From positions 17,322 to 81,321 of the forward strand of contig DCIT01000054.1 in NCBI GenBank assembly GCA_002317145.1: a stretch of 64,000 nt of DNA. Reading direction: 5' to 3'. Below, piece by piece: positions 9,216 through 52,936 of this stretch. The stretch is from Bacillales bacterium UBA1719 (GTDB taxonomy: Bacteria; Bacillota_I; Bacilli_A; RFN20; CAG-826). The position numbers and the translations under genes were made by a program. The notes under the pieces are model-generated. The model had not been told where the DNA came from, made no database searches, and saw only the letters and a list, made by a program, of their open reading frames with translations. Within the stretch, counting starts at the first letter, position 1. Each line of letters opens with the position of its first letter.

Positions 9216-11968
9216 TTAAGCTAAAGAATATTTCTAAGAGTTTTAAAGTAGAGGTAATTAAGGATATTAATTACACTTTTAAGAATACTGGTTTATATTC
9301 GATTGTTGGACATTCTGGATCTGGTAAATCAACTTTATTAAATATCATCAGTGGTCTAGATAATTCTTATAAAGGAGAGTTATTAATTGATGATGTTAAT
9401 TTAAAATATTCTTCATTAGAAGAAAGAAGTAAATTTCGTTTAAGCAATATTGGATACATCTTTCAAGACTTCTCCTTAATACATCTTTTATCAGTGCATG
9501 ATAATGTCATATTTAATATTGATTCTATTTCAACTTTATCAAGTAGAAAAAAAGAGATATTAGTAAATAAAGCTTTATCGTTAGTAGGTTTGCTTGATAA
9601 AAAGAAATGTGTGGTAAATAAATTATCTGGAGGAGAACAACAAAGAGTAGCGTTCGCTAGAGCAATAATTACTTCTCCTAAATATTTATTATGCGATGAA
9701 CCGACTGGTAATCTAGATGATAAAAATAGTGAGATTATATTTTCTTTGTTAAAGAAATATAGCAAAAATCACACTGTTATAGTTGTAAGTCATGATGAAG
9801 AAAAGGTTAATAAATATTCAGATGAAATAATAAAAATTAAAGATGGAGTTATTGAAAATACAAGATGTATTTTAGAAGAAAATGAAATAAATAAACCTAG
9901 AATAAAACTCCCTTTAAAAGAAAAGCCATCATTATCTTTTCCACTTAGATTAAAAAGTGGATTAATGAAAATTAAAGAAAAGAAATTTAGGTCTATATTC
10001 ACTAATTTTATTTCCTCTATTTCATTAGTGGCGTTAGGAATAGGAATAGTTGTTACAACATCATTACAAAATCAAATTGTAGATTCGTTTTCTAATCTTA
10101 TAAACGCGAATCAATTAATTGTAAGTAAAAAGACTAATAATCCGAATCCTTATACTTCTTATATCGCTGCAAGTGAAGATATTGTCGATGAAATTTATAA
10201 AGACTATTCTACTTATATTCATGATTACGGAGTTACATATTTAACAGATTTTAATTCGTTCTTTAAAGATAGAAATCAAGTTTATTTATTACAAGGAAGC
10301 AAGAAAATTATTCTTGATTCATTCTCAGCAGAAAAATTTAATTCTTATGTCTGGCCTGAGGAAAAAGTAGAGACACCCTTTTATCCTAAGATAGAAAAAA
10401 TATTAAGTCCTAATGATATAGTCCTAGGATTAACTTATGTTGATATGGTTAACTTATGTATTTCACTTCAACTCGAAAGAAGTTTTGAATCTCTAGGATC
10501 ATATATTGAGACTCATGAAATGCGATTATTTCTTGGAATAGATAACTTAGATTGGGGATATGATAACGATATTGAATTTAACCTTGTCAGTGTTTATCCT
10601 TCTTCAAAAAGTGAAATATATCATACTGAAAGATTCTTTAATTCATATGTATTTGAAATAGAAGGGCATTTACCAACCACAGATGAAATAGAATCTAACC
10701 CTAAAGATCCTTGGACATTAAAGAAAGTATTTAATTTTCACGCGGTCGAATCTCCAACTTATTTAATTGAAGAAGTGATATTAAATTCTAAATACGATGA
10801 TGTTTTGCTAGAGAATGCTCACAATTTTTTAGATGATCATTGCATTGTTGAAGAAACATGTTTTAAGAATTTAATATTTGTATTTTCTATAGATAAAAAC
10901 ACAATAAATATTTCGGATATTAAAAGTTTTAAGAAAATATCTTCTTCAATTAATAGTTATTATCTTTCTTCAAATTCTGGATATCAGATGCATTCAAGCG
11001 GAATGATTGAAGGATTCTCAAACAATATAGGATTCTCTTTTAACGAAGAAAAGATAATCGAAGTTGGAGATTATCTATCAAAAGAAATTGAAGGAGAAAT
11101 GATGGAGTTTGATGAAGTTGGATTAGGATCAATTACTAGGTTTAATAAAAATGCAGTTTTATTTTCTAGTGATTTAAGCAATGTTTCAAAAGGAGAAAAG
11201 CCTAAAAATTATAATGAGATTGTTATATCTACTGGATTAGCGACTTATCTTAAAAAATCTAATCCATTATATGAAGAATTATTTTATTGTTACTACTCTA
11301 AATCACTAGATTCAACAATTATTAATCACTTTAAAGTTGTAGGAATAGTGGAAGAAGAGAAAAACTACATTTATCATAATCCATTATTTTCTATTTCATT
11401 TTTTCGCGATCGATTAGGAATATCTTCCTTTAATGTTATGCCGACGAATATGGTTTTAAATTTGAATGAAGGATGCGATATTAACTTACTAATTAATAAT
11501 TTATCAAGTAGCTTTAAAGAATATAATTTTGTTTGTCCTTTAGATCAAATTAATCAAACTGTTAATGAAGTTATGGATTATGTTGTAGTGATTGCTGTAG
11601 CTTTTTCATCAGTCTCTTTGATTATTAGTATTTTGCTATTAGCGCTTTCTTCTTATCTCACAATTGTAGAGAGCAAAAATGAAATAAAGATGCTTAAAAA
11701 GATAGGACATTCAAATAAAACAATTAGAGAATATGTAGTCTCTCATACATTTGTTTTAGGTGTTATATCTACATTACTTGCACTTATTGAATTATTTATT
11801 TTTCAAATTATATTATCAGTATTTTTAAATAGTTATTTCTCTAGTAGTGGAGGTATTTCAATTTCATTCTTACCGTTTTTAATTGTTATATTAGTAGGAA
11901 TTATCATTCCTGTTGTTGTCTCTACAATAATATCAATCATTGTTTTACATAATAAAAAGGAGGGTTAA
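9212..11968 (+). CDS. Fused ABC ATPase / large extracytoplasmic domain / FtsX-type permease, paralog 2
   Basis: Walker A GHSGSGKST, signature LSGGEQQR, Walker B LLCDEPTG. One TM segment, then a roughly 560-aa loop, then a C-terminal FtsX-like TM bundle. ATGA overlap with the upstream gene. Confidence 0.85.
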   Translation: MIKLKNISKSFKVEVIKDINYTFKNTGLYSIVGHSGSGKSTLLNIISGLDNSYKGELLIDDVNLKYSSLEERSKFRLSNIGYIFQDFSLIHLLSVHDNVIFNIDSISTLSSRKKEILVNKALSLVGLLDKKKCVVNKLSGGEQQRVAFARAIITSPKYLLCDEPTGNLDDKNSEIIFSLLKKYSKNHTVIVVSHDEEKVNKYSDEIIKIKDGVIENTRCILEENEINKPRIKLPLKEKPSLSFPLRLKSGLMKIKEKKFRSIFTNFISSISLVALGIGIVVTTSLQNQIVDSFSNLINANQLIVSKKTNNPNPYTSYIAASEDIVDEIYKDYSTYIHDYGVTYLTDFNSFFKDRNQVYLLQGSKKIILDSFSAEKFNSYVWPEEKVETPFYPKIEKILSPNDIVLGLTYVDMVNLCISLQLERSFESLGSYIETHEMRLFLGIDNLDWGYDNDIEFNLVSVYPSSKSEIYHTERFFNSYVFEIEGHLPTTDEIESNPKDPWTLKKVFNFHAVESPTYLIEEVILNSKYDDVLLENAHNFLDDHCIVEETCFKNLIFVFSIDKNTINISDIKSFKKISSSINSYYLSSNSGYQMHSSGMIEGFSNNIGFSFNEEKIIEVGDYLSKEIEGEMMEFDEVGLGSITRFNKNAVLFSSDLSNVSKGEKPKNYNEIVISTGLATYLKKSNPLYEELFYCYYSKSLDSTIINHFKVVGIVEEEKNYIYHNPLFSISFFRDRLGISSFNVMPTNMVLNLNEGCDINLLINNLSSSFKEYNFVCPLDQINQTVNEVMDYVVVIAVAFSSVSLIISILLLALSSYLTIVESKNEIKMLKKIGHSNKTIREYVVSHTFVLGVISTLLALIELFIFQIILSVFLNSYFSSSGGISISFLPFLIVILVGIIIPVVVSTIISIIVLHNKKEG

Positions 11969-46004: not shown

Positions 46005-46496
46005 ATGGAAATCGTTGAAATCAAAAAAGAATACATTGATGAATTAAGAAAAAGTTTTTCGCATGTAATGATTAATAAAGGTGAATTTAGCATACATTCA
46101 AGGAAGTATATCGGAATAATTCTAAGTATTAAAAAATATAATTATTACGCACCTTTTTCTTCTCCAAAATTTTACGATTATTATAATTGTGGAATTCCAA
46201 AAGAAAGTTCTAAGTATGTTATTAGAATGACAGAATTAGATGGTGGGTATAAAAAAATATTAGGCAAGATTGTTTTAAATTGCATGATTCCTGTTCCACA
46301 AAAATATGTTGTTAAATTTAACATTAATAAAATATACGATAAACAATATAGAGATTTACTTATATCTGAATATATATGGATTAACAAAAATAAAAGTCTT
46401 ATAAAACAATATGCAAAAATAGTATATAAATCTAATGATAAAATCGTTTTGCCGTTTAGAAAAATTGAAAAATATATTAATAAAAAATACTTATAG
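46005..46496 (+). CDS. ToxN/AbiQ-family type III toxin-antitoxin toxin (endoribonuclease-like)
   Basis: By-eye match to ToxN/AbiQ blocks: KEYIDELRK; RKYIGIILSIKKYNYYAPFSSPK; VLNCMIPVP; YRDLLISEYIWINKNKSLI. Size of 163 aa is typical. Confidence 0.75.
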   Translation: MEIVEIKKEYIDELRKSFSHVMINKGEFSIHSRKYIGIILSIKKYNYYAPFSSPKFYDYYNCGIPKESSKYVIRMTELDGGYKKILGKIVLNCMIPVPQKYVVKFNINKIYDKQYRDLLISEYIWINKNKSLIKQYAKIVYKSNDKIVLPFRKIEKYINKKYL

Positions 46497-46694: not shown

Positions 46695-46771
46695 GGGCCT
46701 TTAGCTCAGCTGGTTAGAGCGTACCCCTGATAAGGGTAAGGTCGATAGTTCAAGTCTATTAAGGCCCACCA
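46695..46771 (+). tRNA. tRNA-Ile (anticodon GAU), CCA encoded
   Basis: Hand-folded cloverleaf with acceptor GGGCCTT/AAGGCCC, anticodon loop CTGATAA and T-loop TTCAAGT. Confidence 0.9.
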
Positions 46772-46797
46772 TTTAAAAATAATAGTCAACTGAACTT

Positions 46798-46873
46798 GGG
46801 CACATAGCTCAGTTGGGAGAGCGTTTCCTTCACACGGAAGAGGTCGTAGGTTCGATCCCTACTGCGCCCACCA
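46798..46873 (+). tRNA. tRNA-Val (anticodon CAC), CCA encoded
   Basis: Hand-folded cloverleaf with anticodon loop TTCACAC and T-arm GTAGG-TTCGATC-CCTAC. There is one A5:C68 mismatch in the acceptor stem. Confidence 0.85.
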
Positions 46874-46877
46874 TATT

Positions 46878-46953
46878 GCCGACTTAGCTCAATTGGTAGA
46901 GCAACTGATTTGTAATCAGTAGGTTGAAGGTTCGAGTCCCTTAGTCGGCACCA
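46878..46953 (+). tRNA. tRNA-Thr (anticodon UGU), CCA encoded
   Basis: Acceptor GCCGACT/AGTCGGC, anticodon stem ACTGA/TCAGT with loop TTTGTAA, T-loop TTCGAGT. Confidence 0.9.
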
Positions 46954-46970
46954 AAATTTATATTTTATTA

Positions 46971-46993
46971 AGAGCTAAAAATAGCTCTTTTTT
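46971..46993 (+). terminator. Rho-independent terminator after the tRNA cluster
   Basis: AGAGCTA(46971-77)-AAAA-TAGCTCT(46982-88), then a T-run. Confidence 0.8.
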
Positions 46994-47027: not shown

Positions 47028-47057
47028 TTGATTTATTTATAAAAAATTAGATATAAT
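47028..47057 (+). promoter_or_regulatory. Promoter of the STAS-phosphatase operon; predicted leaderless mRNA
   Basis: -35 TTGATT (47028-33), 18-nt spacer, -10 TATAAT (47052-57). The ATG at 47064 is only 6 nt downstream, with no Shine-Dalgarno. Confidence 0.45.
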
Positions 47058-47063
47058 TTAAAC

Positions 47064-47363
47064 ATGGAAATTAATATTAAAGAAAAAACTGAGGGGTTTT
47101 TAGTCGAACTTTCCGGTAGATTAGATTCTAGCACTTCAGGTGCTTTAGAAACTAAATTAACAGGACTTGTTAATAAAAAGAAAAACGTCGTTTTAGATTT
47201 TAAACGTGTTGAATATGTATCAAGTGCTGCATTAAGAGCTTTGTTAACTATTCAAAAAAGCTTAAAAGCTTCTAATAATGCTCTTTCTGCTATTAATGCG
47301 AATGAAGTTGTTAAAGAAGTTTTTGATATTACAGGATTTTCTTCGATAATCGAAATTAAATAA
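47064..47363 (+). CDS. STAS-domain anti-sigma-factor antagonist (SpoIIAA/RsbV-like)
   Basis: 99 aa. ...VVLDFKRVEYVSSAALRALL... carries the conserved phosphorylatable Ser context. Confidence 0.88.
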   Translation: MEINIKEKTEGFLVELSGRLDSSTSGALETKLTGLVNKKKNVVLDFKRVEYVSSAALRALLTIQKSLKASNNALSAINANEVVKEVFDITGFSSIIEIK

Positions 47364-49594
47364 TGGCTATTCTAAGTTGGCAAAGTTATTTAACATTACT
47401 TGCTTGTTGCTTATCTCCAGCGATTATTGCAATAATATTGCATTATTTTTTAAAACGTTGGAAATGGTTTAATAGTCTTAATTATTGGATTAGACAAGTA
47501 TCTATTGGTCTAATCTTTTCTGGTTTAGCTTTATGTTCATTTTACTTTGGTGTTGAATATTCAACTATTGATCCAAGTGGATTATATAAAGATGTTGTAG
47601 GTAATTTTGGTAGCGCGAATGCTTCCCCATTAATTGCTGGATTAGTATTTGGTGGTCCATCAGGATTTATTGCTGGATTTGCTGCTGGCATATATCGTTT
47701 AGTTATTTATCCGTTTGGTAGTGGAGATTATTTAAGAGCGGCTGAATGTATAACTGTTTTAGCCTCTGGTGGATTAGCTTGGTTACTTAGAGCAACGTTG
47801 TTTGATAACAAGAAACCTAGATGGTTTTATGGATTGATTATTGGAATGCTTATTGAAACATTCCATATGTTATTAATATTTACTGTATCAATTGCCCAAG
47901 TAGATTCTGTATATGCTTATGGAATTATTAGAGTATGTGATATCCCTTGCTTTGTTACTGTAGGTCTTTCTGTTGCTCTAACGTTAATAGGAATATCATT
48001 ATTAGAAAAAGAAAAACTAATTAATAAAGTTAAAGGTGGCGATAAACGAATTGCGACAAAGATCCAAAGATGGATGGGATTAACTTTTGTTATCGCAATT
48101 ATTGTTACTTTCTCTTTTACATATTGGGGCAATTATCAAAAAACAGCATATGATATATCGCAGAATTTAAATAATGCAAATTATGATGCTAGAGTAAAAA
48201 TTCAATGCGATGAAAATGTTAAGGTATTTAGTGATTTTGTTGATTCATCAAAAGATTATTTAAAGGCTGCTAAAGATTCAGGAACATATCAAGTTTGTAA
48301 ATATCAAAGAATTGGAAAAATGGGATATACTGTCCTTCTTGATTATGATAGTAAAAGAATTGTTTCTATCCCATATGAAACACTTGAAAAACCAACAACA
48401 TATGATAATAAAATAGGTGTTGAATTCCCTGTTGATACAATTTATCCAGACTCAAAAACTGCTCATTTAAGAGAAGTTGAAGGAGTTATGTATTATTTAA
48501 AGTGGGAAGAAATTAAATTAAATAAAACTTATGATGGTAAATCACATGAACTTCATTATATCGCTGTTGCTCTTATCTCTCGTTCAGAGGCTAGATTAGA
48601 ATTAGGTATAGTAGTTAGATTAACATCCTACTTAGAATTATTAGTATTAATTGGAATATTCGCAGTTATTTATATATTCATTAAGAAAGTAGTTGTTAAG
48701 AATGTTTATAAGATAAATGATTCATTAGATAAGATTACTGGCGGCAATTTAAATACTAAAGTTAATGTTAGATCTAATAAAGAGTTCTCAGATTTATCTG
48801 ATGATATTAACCAGACTGTTGATTCTTTAAAACACTTTATTGATGAAGCAAATAAACGTATTGATGATGAATTAAAATACGCAAAAGAAATACAACAAAG
48901 CGCCTTACCATTAACATTCCCAACAACAAATTTATATGATTTACATGCTTGCATGCATACTGCTAAACAAGTAGGTGGAGACTTCTATGATTTCTTTAAT
49001 ATTGATAAGAAACATGTCTTTATCTCTATGGCCGATGTCTCTGGTAAAGGTATTCCAGCCGCAATGTTTATGATGAGAGCTAAAACATTAGTGAAATCAT
49101 TAATTGAAGCTAATGAATTAAAGCTAGATCATGTTATTAACATGGTTAATGAAGAACTTAATAAAGATAATAAGACAGGTATGTTTGTTACGGCATGGTT
49201 TGGTATTTTAAATACTGAAACAGGAGTAGTTGAATTTGTTAACTGTGGACACTGCAATCCATTAGTAGGTAAATCTCCAAGATTCAATTATCTCAAGATG
49301 GAAAAGAATTGTGTCTTAGGTGTTATTCCTAATATGAAATATAAGTTAGAGAAAGTTACTTTAAAATCCAATGATTCAATAATCTTATACACAGATGGAG
49401 TAACAGAAGCGACGAGTAAGAATAAGAAATTATTCGGAGAAGCTAAACTAAAAGAAGTAGTGAATAAAGCTAAAACTATTACTTCGAAAGAATTATTAGA
49501 TGTCATCCATAAAGAAGTCGATAAGTTCCAACACGGCGCTGAACAAGCAGATGATATAACTATGTTAATGATTAAATTTAAAGGTAAGAAATAA
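47363..49594 (+). CDS. Membrane sensor PP2C phosphatase (5TM-LytS-like N-domain, extracytoplasmic domain, HAMP, SpoIIE/RsbU-type PPM), paralog 1
   Basis: N-terminal TM bundle with LIAGLVFGGPSGFIAGFAAGIYR. PPM motifs GGDFYDF, ADVSGKGIPAAMFM, YTDGVTEA and DDITM. TAATG overlap with the STAS gene. Confidence 0.85.
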   Translation: MAILSWQSYLTLLACCLSPAIIAIILHYFLKRWKWFNSLNYWIRQVSIGLIFSGLALCSFYFGVEYSTIDPSGLYKDVVGNFGSANASPLIAGLVFGGPSGFIAGFAAGIYRLVIYPFGSGDYLRAAECITVLASGGLAWLLRATLFDNKKPRWFYGLIIGMLIETFHMLLIFTVSIAQVDSVYAYGIIRVCDIPCFVTVGLSVALTLIGISLLEKEKLINKVKGGDKRIATKIQRWMGLTFVIAIIVTFSFTYWGNYQKTAYDISQNLNNANYDARVKIQCDENVKVFSDFVDSSKDYLKAAKDSGTYQVCKYQRIGKMGYTVLLDYDSKRIVSIPYETLEKPTTYDNKIGVEFPVDTIYPDSKTAHLREVEGVMYYLKWEEIKLNKTYDGKSHELHYIAVALISRSEARLELGIVVRLTSYLELLVLIGIFAVIYIFIKKVVVKNVYKINDSLDKITGGNLNTKVNVRSNKEFSDLSDDINQTVDSLKHFIDEANKRIDDELKYAKEIQQSALPLTFPTTNLYDLHACMHTAKQVGGDFYDFFNIDKKHVFISMADVSGKGIPAAMFMMRAKTLVKSLIEANELKLDHVINMVNEELNKDNKTGMFVTAWFGILNTETGVVEFVNCGHCNPLVGKSPRFNYLKMEKNCVLGVIPNMKYKLEKVTLKSNDSIILYTDGVTEATSKNKKLFGEAKLKEVVNKAKTITSKELLDVIHKEVDKFQHGAEQADDITMLMIKFKGKK

Positions 49595-51885
49595 TGGCAA
49601 TATTACAGTGGCAGAGTTATTTAATATTACTTGCTACAGCGTTAATTCCTGCTGCCGCAGCAATTTTAATGTATCACATTAATAAACGATGGAAATGGTT
49701 TCAAAAACGAAATTATTGGATTCAACAAGTATTAATCGGACTAGTATTTTCTTTGTTCGCTTTAAGCGCATTTTATTTTGGCGTTGACTATTCATCTATA
49801 ACTTCATTTGGAGCATATAAAAATGTTGTTGGTAATTTTTCTAGCACAAATGCAGTTCCTTTAGTTGCTGGATTAGTATTTGGTGGTCCTGCTGGATTTA
49901 TTTCTGGAACAGCTGCTGCTATCTATCGTTTATTTATTTATCCATTTGGTAGTGGTGATTATTTAAGAGCTGCAGAATGTATAACAGTTTTCCTCGCAGG
50001 TGGATTTGCGTGGGTATTAAGAGTTTGGTTATTTGATAACAAGAAACCTAGATGGTTTTATGGTCTCATTATAGGTTTATCTATTGAGACTATTCATATG
50101 TTACTCATCTTTACAGTAGCCATAGCTCAAACTGATGCTCTTTATGCTTATGGTATAATTCGTGCTTGTGATATTTATTGTTTCTTGAATGTCGGGTTAT
50201 CAATAATACTTGCTTTAATAGGTGTAACGTTATTAGAAAAAGAAAAACTATTTAATAGAATTAAAGGTGGCGATAAAAGAATTGCTACTAAAATTCAAAA
50301 GTGGTTAGCGGTAACTTTTGCAGTTGGTATTGTTGTAACATTTACTTTTACTTTCTTTGGTAATTATCAAAAGTCCACTTATGAAACTGAAAAAAGTTTA
50401 TCAGATTCTAATAATGATTTAGCTGATTTAGTTAAGAAAAACGGAAGAATATATTCTCCTATTATTTATCCTGATGTAGGAACATTAACACCTATTGTTG
50501 AAATAGATCAAGATAGTGGAGCATACTATTTAGCTTGTTCGCATAGAGTTGGTAGAGAAGGGTATGCCATTGTATTAGATTATGAATCACAAAAAATATT
50601 ATCTTTACCAACAGATTTTGGTACAGATTTTAACTCTGATGAGCTTATAGGATTGCAGTTTACTTTAGATGGCAAACGTAGTGGTAATACTCTAAAAAAA
50701 CATGGTTATCGCGAAAATACGATATATCAAATAAAATTACCTGAATATGGTGGAAATAAATCATATGTATGCTTTATGAGATATACTCGTGTAAAAATAG
50801 AACGTAGTGTACCATCTGGGCAAGAAGAGAAATGGAAATCTCCTGATTTTATGATTGTTTCATTTTTATCTAAAACTGAAGCTACTATTAACACAGGAAT
50901 AGTTATCAGGCTAACTTCTTATATTGAATTATTAATCTTTATTTTAATATTTGGAGTCATCTATGTATTCATCAAGAAAGTTGTCGTAGTTAATGTTCAT
51001 AAGATAAATGCTTCGTTAGATAAGATTACTGGTGGTAACTTAAACGTTCGTGTTAATGTTAGATCAAATAAAGAATTCTCAGATTTATCTGATGATATTA
51101 ACCAGACAGTAGATACATTAAAACACTTTATTGATGAAGCGAATAAACGCATTGATGATGAATTAAAGTATGCAAAACAAATACAACAAAGTTCATTACC
51201 AATTATCTTCCCAACGACAACTGCTTTTGACTTATATGCAAGTATGCAAACTGCAAAACAAGTAGGTGGAGACTTCTATGATTTCTTCCCAATTGATAAT
51301 GATCACTTATTCTTCATGATTGCCGATGTTTCTGGTAAAGGTATACCAGCAGCAATGTTTATGATGAGAGCAAAAACGTTAGTTAAATCATTAGTTGAAA
51401 CTAATGAATTAGACTTAAATAATGTTATTGAAGAAGCAAATAATGAATTAGCAATTGATAACTCTAGCGGAATGTTTGTTACTGCTTGGTTTGCGATTTT
51501 AAATGTTAAGACTGGAGAGATTGATTATGTTAATGCTGGTCACTGTCGTCCGTTAATAGGCAAGAATAAATCATTCAAATATTTAAGTATGGATACTAAC
51601 CAAGTATTAGGAGTCCTTCCTGATGTTCCTTATAAACAAGGCAAGATTAAATTAAGAAAAGATGAAGGCATATTCTTATACACTGATGGAGTAACTGAAG
51701 CCACTGATAAGAAAAAGAAATTATATGGAGAAGAAAGATTAATTAATTATATTAATTCTATTGATGTTAAGACATCTATAGAAACTATATCTAGCGTTAA
51801 TAGTGAGATTCAATTATTCCAGAAAGATACCGAGCAAGCAGATGATATTACAATGATGATGCTTATCTATAAGAAAAAGAAATAA
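49594..51885 (+). CDS. Membrane sensor PP2C phosphatase, paralog 2 (tandem duplicate)
   Basis: Same architecture as paralog 1, with long near-identical stretches (e.g. NKEFSDLSDDINQTVD.LKHFIDEANKRIDDELKYAK). TAATG overlap with paralog 1. Confidence 0.85.
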   Translation: MAILQWQSYLILLATALIPAAAAILMYHINKRWKWFQKRNYWIQQVLIGLVFSLFALSAFYFGVDYSSITSFGAYKNVVGNFSSTNAVPLVAGLVFGGPAGFISGTAAAIYRLFIYPFGSGDYLRAAECITVFLAGGFAWVLRVWLFDNKKPRWFYGLIIGLSIETIHMLLIFTVAIAQTDALYAYGIIRACDIYCFLNVGLSIILALIGVTLLEKEKLFNRIKGGDKRIATKIQKWLAVTFAVGIVVTFTFTFFGNYQKSTYETEKSLSDSNNDLADLVKKNGRIYSPIIYPDVGTLTPIVEIDQDSGAYYLACSHRVGREGYAIVLDYESQKILSLPTDFGTDFNSDELIGLQFTLDGKRSGNTLKKHGYRENTIYQIKLPEYGGNKSYVCFMRYTRVKIERSVPSGQEEKWKSPDFMIVSFLSKTEATINTGIVIRLTSYIELLIFILIFGVIYVFIKKVVVVNVHKINASLDKITGGNLNVRVNVRSNKEFSDLSDDINQTVDTLKHFIDEANKRIDDELKYAKQIQQSSLPIIFPTTTAFDLYASMQTAKQVGGDFYDFFPIDNDHLFFMIADVSGKGIPAAMFMMRAKTLVKSLVETNELDLNNVIEEANNELAIDNSSGMFVTAWFAILNVKTGEIDYVNAGHCRPLIGKNKSFKYLSMDTNQVLGVLPDVPYKQGKIKLRKDEGIFLYTDGVTEATDKKKKLYGEERLINYINSIDVKTSIETISSVNSEIQLFQKDTEQADDITMMMLIYKKKK

Positions 51886-51916: not shown

Positions 51917-52936
51917 ATGAGAAGAACAAGATTAATAAATGTTATAGCTATATTTGTAAATTTAGCGATTGTTGGATGTTTTTTTGTTGGATTTTATTTT
52001 AAATTTTTAGAAGCATGCGTTAAAGATTTTCAACAAATAAATAATTTAGGTAAACAAATTTTATCTGCCTTAACTAACTTCATATTCTTAACAGCAATAG
52101 TGAACTTCATAACATCTTTAATTATGATGTTTGTCAATGGCAAATCCGCAAAAGCAATGAGAGATAGAACTCCACGTGGTATCTTTATTTTAAGATATAT
52201 CGCTATGGGTATGTCGGCAGTTAGTTTATTCGCTGTTATATTAGCGTTATTCACTACTCCAGATGCTACAGCTAAAGCAGAATTATTTACTAAAGGTGCT
52301 AACTTATACTTTAATTTATTAATGCCTTTATTATCAGTATTATTATTTGCATTCTTAGAGTTAGAACAAAAGAATCATTTTGCTTATAACTTTATTCCGT
52401 TAGCAGCATTTACTATATATGTCGGTGGCATATTTACCTATATGCTTATGTTAAAAGGTAAAGGCAACTTAGAAGCCGCTGCGAAATTCGCTCCACATCC
52501 ATTCTTCTTAATTACTGAAGAATTAGTTAACGCTTCAGGTTTAGCTAGTGATGTTACTCCATCAGTAGCAAGATCTATTTTAGTAACCTTAATAGCCTTA
52601 TCCTTTGGATTACCAACATTGTTATGGTTACTTAATCGCTTTATGTGCTCTGTTATTATTGGATATGAATATGTTGAGATTGATAATAAAGATAAAGTTA
52701 TTAGACCTATTAGTTATAAAGCCTTACCTACATCTCATAAAAAAGGTGCACCTATCTATCATGTATCAATGTATAAACGTAAATTAGATAACTATCAAGT
52801 TAAAACTCCTAAAAACGAAATCAAAATATTCGCAACTAAAGAAGAGGCAATTGATTACGCTTCTATGTTAGCGAAAAAACAAAAAGGTTCTGTCCGTGTC
52901 CATAAATTCTTAGGACGCTTTAAATATAATCATTAA
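51917..52936 (+). CDS. Polytopic membrane protein with C-terminal DUF2188-like domain
   Basis: About 7 TM segments, then YHVSMYKRKLDNYQVKTPKNEIKIFATKEEAIDYASMLAKKQKGSVRVH, which fits the DUF2188 pattern. Confidence 0.5.
   Translation: MRRTRLINVIAIFVNLAIVGCFFVGFYFKFLEACVKDFQQINNLGKQILSALTNFIFLTAIVNFITSLIMMFVNGKSAKAMRDRTPRGIFILRYIAMGMSAVSLFAVILALFTTPDATAKAELFTKGANLYFNLLMPLLSVLLFAFLELEQKNHFAYNFIPLAAFTIYVGGIFTYMLMLKGKGNLEAAAKFAPHPFFLITEELVNASGLASDVTPSVARSILVTLIALSFGLPTLLWLLNRFMCSVIIGYEYVEIDNKDKVIRPISYKALPTSHKKGAPIYHVSMYKRKLDNYQVKTPKNEIKIFATKEEAIDYASMLAKKQKGSVRVHKFLGRFKYNH

Follow-up and report, generated by a model that had tools for sequence, protein, structure and literature searches.

The window (i.e., the whole 64-kb stretch that was analysed, C41:17322-81321 of the source genome G000, Bacillales bacterium UBA1719) carries three coupled genes for a single-domain STAS protein and two membrane sensor phosphatases, henceforth called STAS1, PPa, and PPb. 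In a partner-switching network that extends over two loci and comprises three sensors and two STAS proteins, they represent the input branch without a kinase. The second locus, situated on contig C36, encodes another STAS protein (STAS2) and a paralogous sensor phosphatase fused to a kinase domain (PPK), which brings the total of G000 to three sensor phosphatases, two single-domain STAS proteins, and one kinase domain. Alternative sigma factors are, in the textbook case, controlled by partner switching; for the network described here, the output is no sigma factor of the SigB/SigF type (group 3), since such factors were found neither in G000 (Pfam regions 2 and 4) nor in the genus. With its best GlyA matches in metagenome-assembled genomes labelled Anaeroplasma and Acholeplasmatales, the source organism belongs to the Bacilli and is Mollicutes-like with a reduced genome; its assembly (861,753 bp in 54 contigs, ~30% G+C, 81.6% complete) agrees with the streamlined genome assumed in a preliminary description of the stretch. 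Comparisons included six congeneric genomes (G001-G006, up to 90% complete) and relatives from other genera (G014, G026, G030, and G048).

All three genes of the window locus are encoded on the forward strand. STAS1 (47064-47363; 99 amino acids (aa)) is a single-domain STAS protein that is of anti-sigma-factor-antagonist type and is followed by PPa (47363-49594; 743 aa), a membrane sensor PP2C phosphatase without a kinase domain, and by its tandem paralogue PPb (49594-51885; 763 aa). At 47363 and 49594, a TAATG fuses the stop codons of STAS1 and PPa with the ATG of PPa and PPb, respectively, and the open reading frames (ORFs) as well as both overlaps were recovered exactly as the preliminary description had put them forward for translational coupling.

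STAS1 was matched by the Pfam STAS model (E-value 1.4e-15) and by NCBIfam TIGR00377, the anti-sigma-factor antagonist superfamily, with 63 bits at a cut-off of 53.45. Residues 49-60 of STAS1 read VEYVSSAALRAL, and Ser54 therein (in YVSSAALR) aligns with Ser56 of RsbV and Ser58 of SpoIIAA, both of which are phosphoserines in solved structures. Based on this alignment, Ser54, at the start of helix 2, is the predicted phospho-acceptor of STAS1, and the phosphorylatable serine context ascribed to the protein beforehand is indeed kept. Both serines of the YV/ISS motif were present in all 14 STAS proteins compared (G000 and relatives), with the full Y(V/I)SSAGLR motif in 12 of them, and SSAGLR/Q, the standard form, is found in the same-locus orthologues of G003, G004, and G005.

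For PPa and PPb, the proposed layout of two large PP2C phosphatases with a LytS-like 5TM region, an extracytoplasmic stretch, and HAMP was matched by Pfam and hydropathy. In PPa, the 5TM-5TMR_LYT domain covers aa 41-208 (nucleotides (nt) 47483-47986; E-value 2.4e-14), HAMP aa 450-490 (nt 48710-48832; E-value 8e-4, under the gathering score), and the SpoIIE/PP2C domain (PF07228) aa 549-739 (nt 49007-49579; E-value 3e-46). The corresponding domains of PPb are 5TMR-LYT at aa 37-189 (nt 49702-50160), HAMP at aa 468-510 (nt 50995-51123; E-value 6.5e-5, under the gathering score), and SpoIIE/PP2C (PF07228) at aa 569-757 (nt 51298-51864; E-value 1.5e-44). The N-terminal PF07694 (5TMR-LYT) matches scored 53.7 bits in PPa, 57.1 bits in PPb, and 63.9 bits in PPK (cut-off 24.6). 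Hydropathy placed transmembrane (TM) segments at aa 234-252 and then at about aa 427-445 (PPa) or 448-466 (PPb), and the hydrophilic stretch of ~170-195 aa between both segments, which precedes HAMP (~nt 48119-48640 in PPa), is compatible with an extracytoplasmic domain, judged by hydropathy alone. A Cache/PDC-like fold of this domain is a guess drawn from the order of secondary structures and GY..VLD-type motifs. The AlphaFold2 model of PPa aa 250-432, obtained from a 6-sequence alignment, had a mean predicted local distance difference test (pLDDT) of 51.7, too poor for a fold search. The metal-binding motifs of the PP2C domain are intact in PPa, PPb, and PPK (GGDFYD, DVSGKG, TDG, and DDIT for PPa and PPb; in PPa as GGDFYD, ADVSGKG, TDGVTE, and DDIT), and both PPa and PPb end directly after this domain. 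No paper tying 5TMR-LYT to PP2C was found in the literature.

The whole-genome search of G000 yielded exactly one HATPase_c_2 (RsbW/SpoIIAB-type) domain, which is part of PPK, and one STAS protein besides STAS1. STAS2 (C36:5240-5539; 99 aa) and, downstream of it, PPK (C36:2493-5198; 901 aa) are encoded on the reverse strand, where they form a module (C36:899-5539, reverse strand) with a gene for a phosphotransferase system (PTS) EIIB-EIIC protein located 13 nt downstream of PPK. PPK consists of 5TMR_LYT (aa 47-212), SpoIIE (aa 560-749), and HATPase_c_2 (aa 765-887; E-value 3.8e-21); HAMP was not matched in PPK at an E-value of ≤ 0.01 (Pfam). Its layout of 5TMR-LYT, extracytoplasmic stretch, and PP2C is common to PPa and PPb, to which it is 32% identical over the full length, and STAS2 is 50% identical to STAS1. 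The kinase boxes N (DELFANV), G1 (DSGIPFD), and G2 (GGLGIF) of PPK align with those of RsbW and SpoIIAB. A PP2C domain and an RsbW-like kinase in one chain beside a STAS gene are thus found for PPK/STAS2, not for PPa/PPb, and a free-standing RsbW/SpoIIAB-type kinase next to a STAS gene was not found in G000. The order STAS2-PPK-PTS recurs in G003, G004, and the metagenomic contig L161, where the start of the PTS gene overlaps the stop of PPK. With a second STAS protein, a third paralogous sensor, and the sole RsbW-type kinase domain on C36, the three genes of the window are not the orphan module that they had been taken for, while the accompanying suggestion that the kinase is encoded at another place or that the output is not a sigma factor agrees with both the kinase on C36 and the search for SigB/SigF-type sigma factors, which found none.

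The 64-kb window itself was correctly described as holding neither an RsbW/SpoIIAB kinase nor a sigma factor, as the sole HATPase_c_2 match of the genome falls on C36 and the sole Sigma70_r2 match on C8. The protein on C8, RpoD, was the only one in G000 to pass the searches with Sigma70_r2, r4, and r4_2, and RpoS was not found in this genome. A 185-aa ORF (C2:12869-13426) matched a SigH-type model weakly and in full length (E-value 3e-7, under the cut-off) and lies after cysS and rlmB, i.e., in the canonical position of sigH; it is probably the sole alternative sigma factor of G000. SigH-type sigma factors are not known as RsbW targets. Weak matches to Sigma70_r4 were rejected as sigma factors (YlxM on C22, a LacI-type helix-turn-helix protein on C49, and a SIS-domain-like protein on C11). 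Runs of N (X in the translation) break cysS (C2:~11300-11400) and the LacI-type gene on C49; these are masked positions and not true gene breaks. The canonical rsbW-sigB pair that, according to the preliminary description, would turn the locus into an ordinary split module was absent from the whole-genome search, with the kinase being fused and only RpoD and the SigH-like gene present.

The other genomes gave the same picture. Sigma70_r2 matches numbered one or two in each of the seven genomes of the genus, and among G001-G006 the kinase was fused in five of the six, no kinase domain was seen in G005, and a free-standing kinase occurred in none (0/6). G030 and G048, both 99% complete and carrying the fusion, had one Sigma70_r2 match each. 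Since congeners and 99%-complete relatives agree, it is the lineage that has lost the sigma factor, and a gap in the assembly is not the explanation. In other families of the same order, genes for STAS, free kinase, and sigma factor adjoin one another as triplets, along with 6-12 Sigma70_r2 matches. Regarding other signalling proteins, single-query phmmer, a search of limited sensitivity, detected neither REC-domain nor GGDEF proteins nor a LytS-type histidine kinase in the frames of G000 at an E-value of ≤ 1. G000 may be devoid of two-component systems, and there are hints that the membrane sensor phosphatases account for a large part of the signalling across the cell's membrane.

The phosphatase tree of the genus comprises clade A (window type) and clade B (PPK type). 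The kinase is nearly always present in clade B, the exception (G003c) meeting the contig end before the kinase region. Within clade A, PPa and PPb are sisters (support 100/98) and are the product of a species-specific tandem duplication. Because clade A as a whole is sister to kinase-bearing fusions from other genera in the tree, and because its deepest members G003a and G004a retain a C-terminal kinase-like domain (L059:2808-5621 in G003; L147:2578-5394 in G004), PPa and PPb are derived from bifunctional ancestors, and it was apparently within clade A that the kinase domain disappeared. The retained domain of G003 and G004 has a degenerate G2 box (PTIGLL vs. GGLGIF) and is under purifying selection, with a ratio of nonsynonymous to synonymous substitutions (dN/dS, here and below NG86 estimates) of 0.06; going by these sequence features, it may be a pseudokinase or a binding domain.

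Overall, PPa and PPb are 58% identical, and identity varies along the chain, with 72% in the 5TM region, 30% in the extracytoplasmic domain, 90% in HAMP, and 61% in PP2C. The dN/dS between PPa and PPb follows this pattern (0.34 for the whole chain, 0.11 for HAMP, and 0.63 for the extracytoplasmic domain). Such uneven divergence would be compatible with two sensors that differ in ligand specificity and share the same output. Between orthologues, dN/dS was 0.06-0.15, and the genes are therefore functional. A decaying remnant was ruled out by dN/dS values of 0.06-0.34 together with intact frames and catalytic motifs. In G001, G002, and G006, clade-A phosphatases occur without an adjacent STAS gene and one STAS gene was found per genome, which argues that these phosphatases work on a shared STAS protein. 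A search of contigs for PPa homologues returned only matches at the level of the PP2C domain (Clostridia, Candidatus Fiminaster, and two metagenome-assembled genomes (MAGs) of Methanobacteriaceae). The PP2C domains on the methanogen MAG contigs L012 and L016 (Methanobacteriaceae, Methanobrevibacter) are 39-41% identical to PPa and reflect either horizontal transfer or a binning error.

The architecture of PPK is widespread, with at least 8,000 clusters combining 5TMR-LYT, SpoIIE, and HATPase_c_2 at an E-value of ≤ 1e-10 in public data; those that have a name go by SpoIIE family protein phosphatase or RsbU. Four Clostridia-like contigs have one or two STAS genes after the fusion and, further on, a STAS-APH fusion (~390 aa), and a small HD_4 protein (~190 aa, RelA/SpoT-hydrolase-like) lies in between on three of the four, the fourth having a 195-aa protein without a Pfam match in the HD_4 position. 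Loci of this cassette, from relatives and gut Clostridia, were L056:2305-6660, L157:6001-10890, L158, L159, and L160. Within the family to which the source organism belongs, STAS-APH was present in about a dozen relatives and adjoins the fusion in G030, G026, G048, and G014. Across HAMP, PP2C, and kinase, PPK shares 42% identity with a 944-aa fusion of the Clostridial cassette, STAS2 shares 44% with a cassette STAS, and the other-genus fusions to which the clade of the window is sister in the tree include several located in such cassettes. Unlike the cassette, however, the genus is without STAS-APH (APH-domain matches in 0/7 genomes, G000 included) and G000 is without the small HD_4 protein, its sole HD_4 match being the full-length Rel (746 aa; C42:15806-18043); extra kinase-less sensor phosphatases are found instead. 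The genus has kept the input machinery of a sigma-less switch and has lost the enzymes that usually neighbour it.

Compared to characterised systems, the locus is a trimmed variant of known partner switches, the closest being the HsbR/CrsR-type fusions and the Rsb network of Chlamydia. In HsbR/HsbA of Pseudomonas aeruginosa and CrsR/CrsA of Shewanella oneidensis, a fused PP2C-kinase acts on a STAS partner (PMC6482189), and the arrangement of PP2C and then an RsbW-like kinase in one chain with an adjacent single-domain STAS corresponds to PPK plus STAS2. The input there is a receiver domain, whereas a membrane sensor of 5TMR-LYT and extracytoplasmic domain is used here; moreover, PPa and PPb are without the kinase domain, and there is no equivalent of RpoS or FlgM. 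The Rsb network of Chlamydia trachomatis (PMC4552016) likewise belongs to a reduced genome and shares a membrane-anchored sensor PP2C that has an extracytoplasmic domain, a pair of STAS paralogues, and the distribution of components over several loci without a dedicated stress sigma factor. It differs in that RsbW is separate, with evidence for binding of sigma-66, whereas the kinase is fused here and three sensor paralogues exist instead of one. The Bacillus systems RsbU/RsbP-RsbV-RsbW-sigmaB and SpoIIE-SpoIIAA-SpoIIAB-sigmaF have in common with the present one the aligned STAS serine, a SpoIIE-family PP2C, a GHKL serine kinase, and several input phosphatases on one STAS pool (probably so in the present case), but here there is no group-3 sigma factor, the kinase forms one chain with a phosphatase, integral membrane proteins serve as sensors, and the components occupy two loci. 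Rv1364c of Mycobacterium tuberculosis is a fusion of PAS, PP2C, RsbW-like kinase, and STAS, i.e., it has PP2C and kinase in the same order in one chain; unlike PPK, it is cytoplasmic, takes its input through PAS, carries its STAS domain in cis, and is linked to SigF. No paper tying partner switching or STAS to Mollicutes was found in the literature.

As to the surroundings of the locus, the tRNA-Ile, -Val, -Thr cluster (46695-46953) and the DUF2188 membrane protein (51917-52936) named in the preliminary description were both located as its flanks. An ORF with a match to ToxN_toxin (46005-46496; type III toxin-antitoxin; Pfam E-value 1.1e-26) lies just upstream of the tRNA cluster, after which a terminator-like hairpin (46970-46989, forward strand) marks the upstream boundary of the operon. 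A promoter-like site follows (47028-47057, forward strand) that consists of TTGATT (47028-47033), 18 nt, and TATAAT (47052-47057). This -10 hexamer ends 6 nt 5' of the STAS1 ATG without a Shine-Dalgarno sequence between them, a pattern that makes a leaderless STAS1 mRNA plausible. The site has 10 of 12 matches and is one of four equal-best in the region, where promoter-like matches were not enriched over shuffles (AT-rich DNA). TATAAT was positioned 5-8 nt before the start in 23 of the 589 long ORFs of G000, with 6-19 in shifted controls, and ordinary sites (GGAGG or AAGGAG) are found at the STAS genes of other loci, including the orthologues in relatives. The ORFs with the exact TATAAT (23/589; e.g., on C41, C42, and C50) are also without a Shine-Dalgarno sequence; their rate is roughly double that of the shifted controls, and leaderless mRNAs may be fairly common in this genome. 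None of the public sequencing runs searched for the stretch contained it.

The downstream gene (51917-52936, forward strand; 339 aa) starts 31 nt past PPb, and no terminator-like site was found between them. Its product combines an N-terminal Pr6Pr-like domain with multiple TM segments, which was matched to a Pr6Pr protein by hhalign (probability 95%, E-value 2.8e-8), and a C-terminal DUF2188 domain. In each of the seven genomes of the genus, a clade-A phosphatase is immediately followed by a gene of this type. The gene of the window may be part of the STAS1-PPa-PPb operon, and its product is a candidate partner. The fusion of Pr6Pr-like and DUF2188 domains is apparently limited to the genus, as only the DUF2188 end is matched elsewhere, and upstream of the Clostridial cassette, a few genes away, there is a Pr6Pr gene. 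A DUF2188 membrane paralogue of G000 (C32:1416-2387) had no adjoining signalling genes, and the literature found on DUF2188 was uninformative.

Taking the sequence evidence together, we consider it reasonably probable that PPa and PPb are extra input phosphatases on phosphorylated STAS (STAS~P) made in trans by PPK, and that the output is no alternative sigma factor. The kinase domain of PPK would phosphorylate Ser54 of STAS2 and, in trans, of STAS1, while ligand or membrane signals would act on the divergent extracytoplasmic domain and the 5TMR-LYT region of each sensor. The signal would be passed on via HAMP and the helical linker and would turn on the PP2C domain; linker-mediated activation has been proposed for HAMP-, PAS-, and REC-linked PPM phosphatases (PMC12143880). 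Once active, the PP2C domains of PPa, PPb, and PPK would each dephosphorylate STAS~P. Several inputs would thereby meet at one STAS pool, just as RsbU and RsbP both converge on RsbV. Dephospho-STAS would then bind the kinase domain of PPK or another partner.

Several points weigh against this reading. The assembly is 82% complete, and genes may be missing from G000 if it is taken alone. The search for sigma factors was based on Pfam regions 2 and 4, which very divergent sigma or anti-sigma factors could escape. STAS1 is the most divergent STAS protein of the genus and carries Ala two residues past the serine (SSAALR), where the other 13 aligned STAS proteins and RsbV have Gly, and it may be a poor substrate of the kinase, as far as its residues tell. 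The link to the DUF2188 protein is weak evidence, since the block probably shares its flanking genes genus-wide.

With respect to the output, the genus has lost HD_4 and STAS-APH, so that the output must have been rewired. A non-sigma protein is the candidate to which we give most credence, at a level just short of even, with two candidate partners, the Pr6Pr-DUF2188 membrane protein and, encoded behind PPK, PTS EIIBC. The housekeeping sigma factor RpoD, by analogy with other systems, would be an appreciably less likely output. In a specific version of this, which we regard as unlikely, the RsbW-like domain of PPK would hold RpoD at the membrane, and dephospho-STAS1 or dephospho-STAS2 would displace it and so tune global transcription. 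Such a role would be in line with RpoD as the sole sigma factor over the Pfam cut-offs, with the similarity of the PPK kinase domain, which is greatest to the anti-sigma factors RsbW and SpoIIAB, with the proposed control of sigma-66 by a membrane RsbU, two RsbV, and RsbW in the reduced genome of Chlamydia (PMC4552016), and with the binding of RpoS, a close relative of RpoD, by the fused PP2C-kinases CrsR and HsbR (PMC6482189). However, the core is linked in related genera to enzymes (HD_4, STAS-APH) and not to sigma genes, which suggests a non-sigma ancestral output, and tethering an essential sigma factor to the membrane would be costly. Rather unlikely, too, is that the STAS proteins gate a membrane function directly (through the Pr6Pr-DUF2188 protein or PTS EIIBC), with no sigma output and with the usual enzyme outputs shed as well.

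It is improbable that STAS1 is not a kinase substrate at all and serves as a constitutive regulator or adaptor of PPa/PPb or of the Pr6Pr-DUF2188 protein, with PPa and PPb acting on other phosphoproteins, as STAS1 keeps Ser53, Ser54, and the rest of the motif, its orthologues in G003, G004, and G005 have the standard SSAGLR/Q, and the clade-A phosphatases of three congeners are without a STAS of their own, arguing for a shared one. Features that would speak for this arrangement are the divergence of STAS1 including the Ala for the conserved Gly near the phosphosite, the loss of the kinase domain at its locus, the DUF2188 membrane protein after the clade-A phosphatase in 7/7 genomes, and the Pr6Pr protein near the Clostridial cassette. 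An ordinary split module, whose free RsbW-type kinase and SigB/SigF-like sigma factor would lie in the 18% of the genome that is not assembled, is very improbable, for although the MAG is 81.6% complete in 54 contigs and canonical STAS/kinase/sigma triplets exist in other families of the same order, a free-standing kinase was found in 0/6 congeners (up to 90% complete, with 1-2 Sigma70_r2 matches each), the 99%-complete fusion carriers G030 and G048 have one Sigma70_r2 match, and every kinase found in the genus is fused.

The ~1-Mb genome gives ~0.8% of its DNA to three membrane sensors and two STAS proteins and has no sigma factor for stress or sporulation. Also missing here are the HD_4 and APH enzymes, with which the same core is associated in hundreds of gut anaerobes. 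The practical value is limited, the organism being uncultured and the parts already known. The genus provides a stripped-down natural background for asking what a sigma-less STAS switch controls, and also in what way a single switch is fed by duplicated sensors whose ligand domains have diverged. If the STAS proteins do gate a membrane function directly, the switch would, given that single-query phmmer detected no two-component system, be the main transmembrane signalling device of the cell, acting post-translationally on transport or envelope physiology.

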